Virus record (IMG/VR): IMGVR_UViG_3300045988_103014 | Coordinates: 13,780 to 77,779 of that record | Reading direction: 5' to 3' (one strand) | Length of the DNA stretch: 64,000 bases | From: a virus | Shown here: positions 39,524-44,888 of the stretch, one piece after another | How positions within the stretch are numbered: position 1 is the first letter of the stretch | Layout: every line of letters begins with the position of its first letter | The notes under the pieces: generated by a model | Database searches by the model: none | The model's input: only the letters and a program-made list of their open reading frames with translations | Told to the model about the DNA's origin: nothing | Made by a program: the position numbers and the translations under genes

Positions 39524-40075
39524 ATGAAAATTCTTTTAGTAGTAGATGCACAGAAAGATTTTATTAACGGAGTTCTTGGTACCGCAGAGGCTGAAGCTGC
39601 AACTCCAATTATTGCAGATAAGGTTGCAAAAGCAGTAGAAGATGGTACTATGGTCATCTTTACACAGGATACACATTTTGATGACTATATGGATACTCGA
39701 GAAGGTAAATTCCTTCCTGTCCCTCATTGTATCCAGGATACAGACGGTTGGAAAATTGATGAAAGAGTAGATATTACAGGTGGTTTCCATATCCGAAAGC
39801 TCACATTTGGAGATTATAGCATCGTAGATGATATTGAGGATTGTATTCAAACTGTACACTCTAGTATGGAATTTGAAGATATTGAAGAGATTGAGGTTTG
39901 CGGTTTCTGTACTGACATTTGTGTAATTTCAAATGTGCTTATGCTTCAGTCAGTTTGTCACATTGCTGGTATTCCTATTAAGGTTGATGCAAAGGCTTGC
40001 GCTGGTGTGACCCCTGAGAAGCACGCAGCTGCCATTGAAGTTATGAAGTCTTGTCAGATTGAAGTGGAGGAGTAA
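39524..40075 (+). CDS. pncA: isochorismatase-family cysteine hydrolase, probable nicotinamidase (PncA-like)
   Basis: LLVVDAQKDF N-terminus, catalytic Cys in GFCTDICV. Confidence 0.7.
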   Translation: MKILLVVDAQKDFINGVLGTAEAEAATPIIADKVAKAVEDGTMVIFTQDTHFDDYMDTREGKFLPVPHCIQDTDGWKIDERVDITGGFHIRKLTFGDYSIVDDIEDCIQTVHSSMEFEDIEEIEVCGFCTDICVISNVLMLQSVCHIAGIPIKVDAKACAGVTPEKHAAAIEVMKSCQIEVEE

Positions 40076-40076
40076 A

Positions 40077-40877
40077 ATGATTAAAATTAACGGAATAGCA
40101 CTTGAGCAGAAACAGTTCCCGGATGGCACACTTCATTTTGAGGTTCCTGAACCTCAAGAAGATTGGAAAGTTCTTGAAATTACTTGGCTCTATGATAATG
40201 ATGTGGAGTTATTTATGCTTCAGTGTATCGTAGACAAGTATCCAAATTTCGATAAGGTTCTTATTCTTCCTTATGTGCCTCATGCACGAATGGATAGAAC
40301 AAAGCACTTTACAGATGTATTTACTCTTAAATCATTCTGTAAGATTATTAACACAATGAATTTCAGAAGTGTATGCGTCCTTGACCCTCACTCTGATGTA
40401 ACTCCTGCATTGCTCGACAGAGTATTTGTTCTTCCTGCGGACTCTTGGGTACCTCAGGTTATTGAACACGAAGAGTTTGGTGATGATTTTGTATTCTTCT
40501 ATCCTGATGCGGGTGCGGCAAAGCGTTATGATAGCGGCAAACCTCATACATATGGAGTTAAGAAGCGCAACTGGGAGACTGGAAAAATTGAAAGTCTTGT
40601 TATCGCAGACCCTGATGTAGTAAAGGGTAAGAATGTAATTATTGTAGATGACATTTGCTCTTATGGTGGAACTTTCAGCCGAGCTGCTGCCGCTCTTAAA
40701 GAGGCTGGCGCAGAAAAGATTTACCTTTTTGTAAGTCATTGCGAGGGTAATATCTTTAAGGGTACTGTATTCAGCGACGGTAATATCGACGCAGTTTATA
40801 CAACAAACTCTCTCATTAAACCTTGGGAAGTTCCGGAAGGAATGGAAGGCAAGTTCTACATCGTAGATATGTTCTAA
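40077..40877 (+). CDS. ribose-phosphate pyrophosphokinase (Prs) homolog; candidate ADP-ribose pyrophosphokinase (Adps) of an NAD+ reconstitution pathway
   Basis: HARMDR (cf. YARQDR), DPHS (cf. DLHA), VDDICSYGGT PRPP-binding loop; directly precedes NAMPT-like gene. Confidence 0.65.
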   Translation: MIKINGIALEQKQFPDGTLHFEVPEPQEDWKVLEITWLYDNDVELFMLQCIVDKYPNFDKVLILPYVPHARMDRTKHFTDVFTLKSFCKIINTMNFRSVCVLDPHSDVTPALLDRVFVLPADSWVPQVIEHEEFGDDFVFFYPDAGAAKRYDSGKPHTYGVKKRNWETGKIESLVIADPDVVKGKNVIIVDDICSYGGTFSRAAAALKEAGAEKIYLFVSHCEGNIFKGTVFSDGNIDAVYTTNSLIKPWEVPEGMEGKFYIVDMF

Positions 40878-40884
40878 GAAATTG

Positions 40885-40921
40885 AAGTCCTCTGCTTCTT
40901 TTGGAAACAGAGGACTTTATT
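40885..40921 (+). terminator. hairpin (weak terminator)
   Basis: AAGTCCTCTG...CAGAGGACTT. Confidence 0.5.
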
Positions 40922-40949
40922 GATTTTTATTAAAAAATTTGTTATAATA
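40921..40949 (+). promoter_or_regulatory. conserved promoter module copy 23
   Basis: ttgatttttattaaaaaatttgttataat. Confidence 0.7.
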
Positions 40950-40995
40950 TATACATAAGATAAAGAAAGAAATAAAAAGCACTGGAGGGCTTGAG

Positions 40996-43646: not shown

Positions 43647-43659
43647 GGAGGAGTAAGAG

Positions 43660-43851
43660 ATGGCAAAGACCAGAGAAATAGCGTGTATTCATTATAAATG
43701 TGAAGGTAACTGTGATTTGGGTAAGGATGCGTCATTCCGAGGTCATTGCCAGACTTGCCCGACCTACAAAAAGTTACCAGGTGGCAAACCAGCCCGAGTA
43801 GATAATCGCAGAAAGAAAATGGATAAGATTATACGAAAGGAGAAATGGTAA
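43660..43851 (+). CDS. small Cys-rich hypothetical protein (63 aa)
   Basis: RBS AAGGAGGAG; CxxxC...CxxC. Confidence 0.5.
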   Translation: MAKTREIACIHYKCEGNCDLGKDASFRGHCQTCPTYKKLPGGKPARVDNRRKKMDKIIRKEKW

Positions 43852-44009
43852 TGAAAGAAAAGGAAGCATCTTGGTTTGCTAAGTTACAATGTAAAATCAG
43901 AGGACATAAATGGAAAGTGGTAAAGAAAGATAATAACTCTTACTATAACGATGTACAGGAGTGGGTATGTACTTGTTGTGGAGAAAAAACCACTATTCGC
44001 AGGAGGTAA
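43851..44009 (+). CDS. small Zn-ribbon-like hypothetical protein (52 aa)
   Basis: ATGA overlap with upstream stop; CxxxxxH...CTCC motif; below ORF-track cutoff. Confidence 0.35.
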   Translation: MKEKEASWFAKLQCKIRGHKWKVVKKDNNSYYNDVQEWVCTCCGEKTTIRRR

Positions 44010-44011
44010 AT

Positions 44012-44455
44012 ATGGGAGAATGTGAAGCAGAATACAGTACATATTCGGATGGAGCATATACTCATGTAGTATCACTTGACGAGTCTGTTCGTTCAATCAA
44101 GGCTCATATCCGAAGTGTAGAAATGAGAAATAAATATTTGGAAGAAGAAAATGCCCGTCTAAAAGATGAGGCTTATAAGGATACTCAGCTCCAAGAGATG
44201 AGAGAGTCAATGGAGCGCATGCGCCAAGAAATCCGCTATGGTTTTCCTGTTGATGAAGAAGAACATAGACGACTTGAAGAGTGGAAAAGAAAGCACGACG
44301 AAGAGGCACATGGCGCAGATTATTCTCAGAAAAAGTTCCGTTATTCCGGAGCAATTGGTGGAAGTTATACATACCGCTTTACCCCTACATCAATCGGTAC
44401 TTTTGGTACTTGTGTATGTAGTTGCGGTGCAAAATTCGATTTCCAGGAGGCATAA
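44012..44455 (+). CDS. hypothetical coiled-coil protein with C-terminal CxCxC motif (147 aa)
   Basis: RBS AGGAGG. Confidence 0.5.
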   Translation: MGECEAEYSTYSDGAYTHVVSLDESVRSIKAHIRSVEMRNKYLEEENARLKDEAYKDTQLQEMRESMERMRQEIRYGFPVDEEEHRRLEEWKRKHDEEAHGADYSQKKFRYSGAIGGSYTYRFTPTSIGTFGTCVCSCGAKFDFQEA

Positions 44456-44456
44456 T

Positions 44457-44888
44457 ATGATAGCTAAATTTGAAGGTAAAGATGCCTTTTTAAGCAACTT
44501 TGCATCAAGTCCGATAAACTACGAGGGGATAACATACCCTACTGTAGAGCACGCATTTCAGGCGGCAAAGACCTTGTCTACTGAAGAAAGAGCGACCATT
44601 GCGGCAATGGCAACACCAGGGCAGGCAAAGCGTGCGGGTCGCAGAGTTTCCCTTCGCAGTGACTGGGAAACAGTAAAATTTAGCGTAATGGAAGAGTGTC
44701 TGCGATTGAAGTTCGCAGACCCGGTGTTACGCAAAAAGTTGTTAAATACAGGCGACCTTGTATTAGTAGAAGGTAACACTTGGCATGATAATATTTGGGG
44801 CAGTTGTACTTGCCCAAATTGCGGCAACCGAGGCGGCAACGCACTTGGTCAGATGTTAATGAGTATTAGAGAGGAGTTAAGACAATGA
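44457..44888 (+). CDS. NADAR (YbiA/DUF1768) domain protein
   Basis: FLSNFASSPINYEGITYPTVEHAFQAAK and WHDNIWGSCTCPNCG match NADAR signature; RBS GGAGG. Confidence 0.75.
   Translation: MIAKFEGKDAFLSNFASSPINYEGITYPTVEHAFQAAKTLSTEERATIAAMATPGQAKRAGRRVSLRSDWETVKFSVMEECLRLKFADPVLRKKLLNTGDLVLVEGNTWHDNIWGSCTCPNCGNRGGNALGQMLMSIREELRQ

Follow-up and report, generated by a model that had tools for sequence, protein, structure and literature searches.

Whether a block of consecutive nicotinamide adenine dinucleotide (NAD+) genes in a phage encodes a single pathway, and from which precursors it would make NAD+, is the question raised by positions 39524-44888 of the DNA analyzed here, a stretch of 64,000 nucleotides from IMG/VR virus record IMGVR_UViG_3300045988_103014 (positions 13,780 to 77,779 of that record). 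The large phage genome from which this 64-kb window is taken extends beyond it, and all genes of the window lie on the + strand. The block comprises, in this order, genes for a PncA-like nicotinamidase, a pyrophosphokinase of the phosphoribosyl pyrophosphate (PRPP) synthetase type (PRPS; Prs), a protein of the nicotinamide phosphoribosyltransferase (NAMPT) family, a macro-domain protein, the NAD+ synthetase NadE, three small Cys-rich open reading frames (ORFs), and a NADAR-domain protein. A preliminary description of the stretch had listed the same genes, and each was found where it had been placed, on the + strand and tightly packed, with neighboring genes mostly abutting or overlapping. The window looks like that of a gut phage with a conserved four-enzyme cassette resembling a known phage pathway for rebuilding NAD+ once bacterial immunity has destroyed it. 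The module is a real, conserved, and hitherto undescribed variant of NAD+ reconstitution pathway 1 (NARP1), and our best model, to which we assign a probability of roughly 45%, is a four-step deamidated route formed by PncA, an Adps-like pyrophosphokinase, a Namat-like transferase, and NadE.

In NARP1, as defined by Osterman et al. (2024, bioRxiv 10.1101/2024.02.11.579819), Adps converts ADP-ribose (ADPR) to ADP-ribose pyrophosphate (ADPR-PP), from which Namat makes NAD+ with nicotinamide; the Adps proteins make up a clade of their own, separate from cellular Prs. Structures of NARP1 have been reported (PMC12774641, PMC13586617). As in NARP1, the PRPS-like and NAMPT-like genes of the window are adjacent, with a gap of 118 nt, and the same adjacency was found in all related loci. 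The PRPS-like gene (40077..40877, + strand; 266 aa) has its ATG start inside an ORF opening at TTG 40059. Its product scored 225 bits with a hidden Markov model (HMM) of Adps proteins adjoining classic Namat, which was trained without sequences of the window's clade; Athena Adps reached 217 bits and Escherichia coli Prs 133 bits. It stayed below every PRPS family cutoff, scoring 89 bits with TIGR01251 (cutoff 113), compared with 96.5 bits for FADO Adps, 98.5 bits for Athena Adps, and 423 bits for E. coli Prs. Amino acid sequence identity was 38.6% to Adps of FADO, whose NARP1 was validated in vivo, and 23.6% to E. coli Prs; the best PHROG family was phrog_619 (229 bits).

Structures of ICP1 Adps define the mechanism, and the Adps signature consists of a catalytic Lys on a β-hairpin, a remodeled pyrophosphate (PP) loop, and the loss of the C-terminal helices α11-α12 (PMC13586617). 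Alignment of the window protein with ICP1 Adps identified the catalytic-Lys hairpin as KKRNWETGKI (pattern K-x-R-[DN]-x-x-T-G-x-I). The PP loop reads DDICSYGGTF, compared with DDLSSYGGTF in FADO Adps and DDMIDTGGTL in E. coli Prs, and the short C-terminus lacks the regulatory helices of PRPS. Judged by these features of its sequence, the Prs-like protein behaves as an Adps and not as a cellular PRPS. Phe92 of ICP1 Adps was dropped as a family marker because FADO Adps also lacks it.

The NAMPT-family gene (40996..42468, + strand; 490 aa, NAPRTase and NAMPT_N domains) has 9w5x as its best solved relative (360 bits; human NAMPT, 188 bits), which was identified by its residue numbering as SpβL1 Namat. 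In a neighbor-joining tree calculated from distances with bootstraps, the protein grouped with Namat and was separated with 100% bootstrap from Ralstonia NadV, whose gene adjoins NadM, and from Rhodococcus Nampt. The clade containing the window enzyme is composed of an S and an A clade (100% bootstrap) and is sister to a D/E clade of Namat proteins (86%) that holds those of FADO and Athena. The preliminary description had read the gene pair as Adps plus Namat and had proposed phylogenetic placement as a check. This placement put the NAMPT-like protein on the Namat side, away from NadV/Nampt, and the Prs-like protein, as is the case for Adps, fell below the TIGR01251 cutoff. The assignment can be kept for the Adps hallmarks and for the Namat grouping (100% versus Nampt); it has to be amended, however, since the transferase belongs to a separate sister clade with a changed pocket. 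The 100% separation from NadV/Nampt and the lack of an adenylyltransferase in the 64 kb also distinguish the window from NARP2, in which a Nampt-clade enzyme works with a nicotinamide mononucleotide (NMN) adenylyltransferase. NARP3 (PnuC and NadR) was considered and rejected as a different pathway whose genes are not present.

The Namat-like enzyme keeps the catalytic His (TEHS) and R306 (RPDSGD). The residue corresponding to SpβL1 D215 is Ser at window position 213 (KTSTIPA versus GTDTIPA), and that corresponding to A242 is Ser at position 240. Throughout the clade, D215 is replaced by Ser in the S clade, to which the window enzyme belongs, and by Ala in the A clade, and A242 is replaced by Ser in both. 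The two are among the seven nicotinamide-pocket residues of the SpβL1 crystal structure and among the conserved positions that distinguish the clades. D215 of SpβL1 Namat hydrogen-bonds nicotinamide, and the D215A variant has an approximately 8-fold lower activity. Substrate specificity of human NAMPT is described as depending fundamentally on the equivalent D219, and the D219S mutant is reported to switch substrate preference (Khan et al. 2006, as cited in PMC7096376 and PMC4919578). The same Asp-to-Ser exchange was engineered there in a PRPP-using enzyme, whereas that of the window is natural, fixed in a large clade, and coupled to another change in the pocket. The Namat-like key enzyme appears to be re-tuned to nicotinic acid instead of nicotinamide. 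Its own sister clade (100%), both substitutions, and a selectivity clamp that is interrupted (see below) set it apart from the Namat of NARP1.

Related loci were gathered from IMG/VR with the window protein, FADO Namat, the nearest GenBank relative, phAss-1, and PncA as queries, and bacterial loci with an alignment query against one genome per species; a megablast search of the block against GenBank phages gave no match, so that relatives were reached through their proteins. Several hundred related loci of viruses and bacteria combine PncA, the Prs-like protein, the NAMPT-like protein, and NadE, and the block is thus no chance juxtaposition. Linkage was counted where the NAMPT-family gene of a viral locus had 4 kb or more of sequence on either side. 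PncA, the PRPS-like protein, and NadE accompanied 64 of 64 enzymes with an S/S pocket (residues 215/242) and 87 of 87 with an A/S pocket (151/151 together), whereas PncA or NadE occurred at 0 of 50 loci with the D/A or E/A pocket of classic NARP1. This linkage to pocket type indicates that PncA and NadE are integral to the pathway; the window's type of cassette is obligately tied to both, and classic loci never carry them. The preliminary description had taken the nicotinamidase and NadE for an extra Preiss-Handler branch, which the counts contradict; moreover, with no PncB at the locus, such a branch would be incomplete. Instead, PncA, the Adps-like and Namat-like proteins, and NadE look like one pathway through nicotinic acid.

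The linkage spans three deep lineages despite changed gene order (PncA lies 3' of NadE in MT835544, and other genes split the cassette in L080) and was held across divergence down to about 35-48% identity. The third of these lineages comprises phAss-1, a gut phage already published, together with eleven relatives, which have A215, S242, and the full cassette. The phAss-1 record (L330, OQ749652.1; 4861-9299) lists its NadE (307 aa, 153 bits to NAD_synthase) as a hypothetical protein.

The PncA-like nicotinamidase (39524..40075, + strand; 183 aa, Pfam Isochorismatase 74.9 bits) has the nicotinamidases of P. horikoshii and M. tuberculosis (1im5, 3pl1) as its best solved relatives. Its triad D8/K92/C133 and metal site D49/H51/H68 are intact and do not vary in four further lineages. 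NadE (42888..43646, + strand; 252 aa) is an NH3-dependent NAD+ synthetase with 177 bits to NAD_synthase PF02540, 182 bits to TIGR00552 (cutoff 63.65), and the SGGxDS P-loop.

The proposed model builds on the observed gene identities, catalytic residues, clade placement, pocket substitutions, and strict gene linkage. The core would be a four-gene pathway that rebuilds NAD+ from ADP-ribose and nicotinamide, the products of NADases, through the acid form of the pyridine. PncA would convert nicotinamide to nicotinic acid and NH3, and the Adps-like enzyme would form ADPR-PP and AMP from ADP-ribose and ATP. The Namat-like enzyme would then join nicotinic acid and ADPR-PP to nicotinic acid adenine dinucleotide (NaAD, deamido-NAD) and PPi, and NadE would convert NaAD, ATP, and NH3 to NAD+. 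The macro protein, and possibly the NADAR protein, would deliver free ADP-ribose from phosphorylated or conjugated forms. We infer both substrates of the third step as well as a role of the cassette against NAD+-depleting defense.

The macro-domain gene (42452..42904, + strand; 150 aa) overlaps the stop codon of the Namat-like gene and was found in approximately 55% of related loci. The protein matched phrog_335 "phosphatase" (160 bits) and shares 29% identity (E = 4e-13) with the macro "phosphatase" encoded between Adps and Namat in Thalassavirus Athena; Poa1p (6lfq) and the macro domains of DarG gave weak matches of about equal strength. A function as an ADPR-1''-phosphate phosphatase (Adpp-like), or as some other ADP-ribosyl hydrolase that releases free ADPR, is probable, and a DarG-type protein acting against DarT2 is a further possibility. 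An ADP-ribose accessory had been anticipated for this gene, and it fits the Adpp of the described NARP1-AP, which consists of Adps, the Poa1p-like macro phosphatase Adpp, and Namat (bioRxiv 10.64898/2026.01.28.702374). The Adps-macro-Namat system of Vibrio phage Gary dephosphorylates ADPR-1''-P and extends NARP1 to aRES defense. The window shares with NARP1-AP an in-operon macro gene of the same PHROG family, but its macro gene lies 3' of the Namat-like gene and not between the two enzyme genes, is one of several extras, and would act on ADPR-1''-phosphate by prediction.

The locus might be read as an ordinary NARP1-AP that makes NAD+ from ADPR and nicotinamide, with PncA and NadE as separate enzymes feeding host PncB and NadD. 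The Adps, Namat, and macro architecture matches such a system, and so do the conserved catalytic His, R306, and F392. We nevertheless consider it improbable, as the amide-binding Asp is replaced in every member of the clade and A242 is changed as well, PncA would destroy Namat's own substrate, and PncA/NadE occur at none of the classic D-type loci and at all loci with the altered pocket.

In a reverse test, 80 viral loci were picked by PncA and not by the NAMPT-family gene. An S/A-type cassette was present in 38 of the 80, a D-type Namat in none, and a complete Preiss-Handler set of PncA, PncB, an adenylyltransferase, and NadE in 23. All 23 PncB-type phage loci contained an adenylyltransferase. 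No PncB-like ORF was found at any cassette locus, and an adenylyltransferase lies near approximately 3-4% of cassette loci, with about 96% having none nearby. Since PncB loci always have an adenylyltransferase and cassette loci rarely do, the Adps-like/Namat-like pair stands where PncB and NadD stand, as a conversion of nicotinic acid to NaAD by the two enzymes would predict. The window cassette resembles the Preiss-Handler pathway in that it begins with PncA and ends with NadE, with nicotinic acid as the proposed pyridine; it differs in having neither PncB nor NadD in the window and the Adps-like/Namat-like pair in their place. As in NARP1, no adenylyltransferase was detected nearby: searches of the 64-kb window with E. 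coli NadD, a phage NMN adenylyltransferase (NMNAT)-like HMM, the gene from L422 as seed, and a motif scan found none. The phage NMNAT-like genes behind this HMM carry the motif GRFQxxHxGH. At L424, whose Namat-like protein is 85% identical to that of the window, there was likewise no adenylyltransferase within 10 kb. The PncA-PncB-adenylyltransferase-NadE sets in gut phages are another phage NAD+ route, for which we found no description; complete examples on IMG/VR gut contigs are L421 (7995-12441), L346 (7986-11006), and L372 (4899-8522).

Several observations weigh against the deamidated route through ADPR-PP. The selectivity clamp of Namat consists of GSxΦxΦxΦTRD and a stacking residue in the SCL loop (PMC12774641), and Namat clamp mutants lose ADPR-PP use and retain PRPP use. 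In the window enzyme the motif reads GAFCFHGFFEGDKFWALTRD, split by a 9-aa insertion, and an insertion of 9-10 residues interrupts it in the S and A clades alike. In the S clade, in which the insertion splits GSxTxQxNTRD, R40 is Met in 68 of 68 sequences; the window enzyme, with Met at this position, keeps F392 and F394 alone of the clamp residues. The A clade keeps the stacking Arg40 (67/67), F392 is kept throughout, and the phAss-1 lineage keeps a full clamp motif (GAYTYQYVTRD). With regard to adenylyltransferases, such a gene may lie in the genome outside the 64-kb window. The S-clade locus L077 encodes an NMN/nicotinic acid mononucleotide (NaMN) adenylyltransferase between the two enzyme genes, NMNAT-like genes occur in or near the cassette also in L078-L080 and L259 (S clade), and the syntenic 168-kb scaffold of L422/L423, whose Namat-like protein is 82% identical to that of the window, has an NMNAT-like gene. 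Moreover, because the S and A clades are monophyletic, the strict linkage may represent one or two evolutionary events, not hundreds. Given the interrupted clamp and the adenylyltransferase in some close relatives, the ADPR-PP step is not secure. Namat can use PRPP if ADPR-PP is absent, so that a dual-donor enzyme is also possible.

The disrupted adenine clamp of the S clade, the PRPP use retained by Namat clamp mutants, and the adenylyltransferase inside or near the cassette of several S-clade phages, including the 82%-identical relative, would all suit a salvage of the Preiss-Handler type. PncA would here supply nicotinic acid and the Prs-like enzyme PRPP, the S-pocket enzyme would convert both to NaMN as a nicotinate phosphoribosyltransferase, host NadD or a phage adenylyltransferase would form NaAD, and NadE would act last; the pocket change and the linkage to PncA and NadE fit this sequence of reactions equally well. 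It is a serious alternative that we nonetheless judge less likely than the route through ADPR-PP. The Prs-like protein has the Adps-specific hairpin and PP loop, is devoid of the PRPS regulatory helices, and scores below the PRPS cutoffs, and SpβL1 Adps yields no PRPP. The frequencies of nearby adenylyltransferases, which are missing from the window and from about 96% of cassette loci and present at every PncB-type locus, also argue against it, and a phage that brings its own NadE, an enzyme of nearly all hosts, while relying on them for NadD would be strange. The route through ADPR-PP and NaAD is further favored by the clamp residues retained in the A clade and the phAss-1 lineage, by accessory genes that handle ADPR, and by the ADPR-sensing NrtR that adjoins the bacterial cassette.

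The last gene of the block (44457..44888, + strand; 143 aa) encodes a NADAR-domain protein (PF08719, 100 bits; TIGR02464, 84.8 bits with a cutoff of 73.7). Its nearest solved relative is E. coli YbiA (2b3w, E = 7e-20), and YbiA-type proteins are the closest overall. With phmmer, NADAR was found in 34 of 243 loci, or about 1 in 7. It is an occasional accessory and a candidate ADP-ribosyl or N-glycoside hydrolase. Phage NADARs of the DarG1-like or non-YbiA groups (AdfN) remove ADP-ribose from DNA and defeat DarTG1 (PMC11825919); the domain is clear in the window protein (100 bits), but its nearest relatives are of the YbiA type. In L424 (12807-17539), NadE and NADAR are separated by inserted genes for an EAL-domain protein and a Cache/MCP-signal protein.

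The protein family is large, with more than 120 clusters at least 65% identical to the window protein. Among GenBank phages, PncA homologues were found in 7 of 50,697 records, all from human gut. The best 80 matches in bacterial genomes were mostly metagenome-assembled genomes of gut Clostridia and a few isolates, and NrtR-like genes flank the cassette in 41 of these 80 loci; the regulator of L308, a protein with Nudix and NrtR winged-helix domains, is a confirmed example. In Pseudoruminococcus massiliensis the cassette adjoins asd, dapA, and dapB, and NadE is glutamine-dependent. The cassette is thus common in gut phages, as cargo, and in Clostridia, as an NrtR-regulated operon; NrtR was found beside it in none of the viral loci. 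Older work described bacterial operons of prs and nadV that are repressed by the ADPR-responsive NrtR (PMC2330246), and a bacterial NARP1 has been reported (PMC12774641). Like these operons, the cassette places a PRPS paralogue next to a NadV-family gene, and its Clostridia version is NrtR-flanked, but the described operons contain neither PncA nor NadE, and the P. foliorum example is close to D-type Namat.

This distribution bears on the role of the cassette irrespective of its mechanism. By analogy with the described pathways, a function in counter-defense is plausible. The cassette could instead serve housekeeping, either by recycling NAD+ breakdown products for NAD+ consumers of the phage or as a copied bacterial salvage operon, and its presence in Clostridia chromosomes beside NrtR (41/80) and housekeeping genes would agree with this. 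The phage also encodes an NAD+-dependent DNA ligase, which had been noted downstream and was found as LigA at 60627..62603 (+ strand; 148 bits to DNA_ligase_aden, with OB and BRCT domains in addition); this enzyme of the phage consumes NAD+ and does not belong to the cassette. Several related phages have, in addition, a SIR2 gene near the cassette. We are inclined to doubt the housekeeping role, however, as NARP1, NARP1-AP, NARP2, and NARP3 have all been shown experimentally to act in counter-defense, ADP-ribose is made by NADase effectors and not by LigA, and NrtR is missing from all viral loci. The SIR2-family protein (approximately 248 aa) lies a few kb from the cassette in L422 (4659-5405) and in L010, L013, L025, L039, L041, and L355-L358, which suggests that these phages have their own NAD+-consuming enzyme, the products of which the cassette could recycle.

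The pathways described so far are NARP1, NARP2, NARP1-AP, the RyDEP accessory, NARP3 (PnuC and NadR), and bacterial NARP1. In the literature searched, nothing linked NARP to nicotinamidase, NadE, NaAD, or the Preiss-Handler pathway, and the four-gene cassette was not described. Nicotinamidase, NadE, and NAD synthetase go unmentioned in a broad 2022 survey of viral NAD+ and ADP-ribose systems, and the phAss-1 paper lists the cassette genes without discussing the cassette. NAD+ depletion is among the commonest antiphage strategies, and the study of its reversal by phages is a very active field, with NARP1, NARP1-AP, NARP2, and NARP3 described in 2024-2026. We tentatively favor the view that an S/A-pocket enzyme making deamido-NAD from nicotinic acid and ADPR-PP would define a self-sufficient fourth NARP that is widespread in human-gut phages and, in gut Clostridia, forms an NrtR-controlled ADP-ribose recycling operon. 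If the four-step model is correct, it comprises a new route of NAD+ rebuilding and a new enzyme reaction, explains why nicotinamidase and NadE travel with the Adps/Namat pair in hundreds of gut phage genomes, and gives a function to a common Clostridia operon. For annotation, a simple two-residue rule, D215/A242 versus S or A215/S242, could tell the two types of pathway apart.

Three small Cys-rich ORFs (43660-43851, 43845-44009, and 44012-44455, + strand) lie between NadE and NADAR, of which the second alone has a family match (DUF1660, 21.5 bits). They are missing from relatives, except for approximately 10 loci matching the third ORF. Neither these ORFs nor YqeY belong to the conserved part of the cassette.

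A promoter-like site precedes PncA (39463..39491, + strand) and consists of one copy of TTGATTTTTATTAAAAAA followed by the -10-like hexamer TATTAT. A hairpin (40885-40917) and a second promoter-like copy (motif 40920-40948, + strand) lie between the Adps-like and Namat-like genes. The 18-nt motif TTGATTTTTATTAAAAAA occurs in 22 copies (up to 2 mismatches) between 904 and 45901, on the + strand only, with 0.04 expected; copies start, for example, at 1496, 7459, 18325, 38630, 39463, 40920, and 45682. Most are located directly 3' of a hairpin and 5' of a -10-like hexamer. The motif resembles a class of promoters specific to this phage, and the phage's own sigma factor (encoded at 4-903) may recognize it.

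The window endolysins carry SH3_3 domains, which indicates a Gram-positive host. A total of 34 tRNA genes covering most amino acids are found on the + strand at 1642-24703. Together with a Thg1 tRNA-His guanylyltransferase (29042-29866), an RNA ligase (37203-38594), and a kinase and phosphoesterase pair (46145-47234), they form an arsenal for tRNA supply and repair. A 513-aa protein with DUF2828 and DUF7788 (26166-27707) is encoded between the tRNA arrays and Thg1. The window further encodes a 509-aa SPFH/flotillin-like protein with a long Ala/Glu/Lys-rich coiled region (47294-48823), which is kept in L422 and L424, and an 823-aa protein (30797-33268) with a Major Vault Protein shoulder domain (91 bits) and a Vault_3 repeat (32 bits), which is unusual in a phage and is kept in L424.

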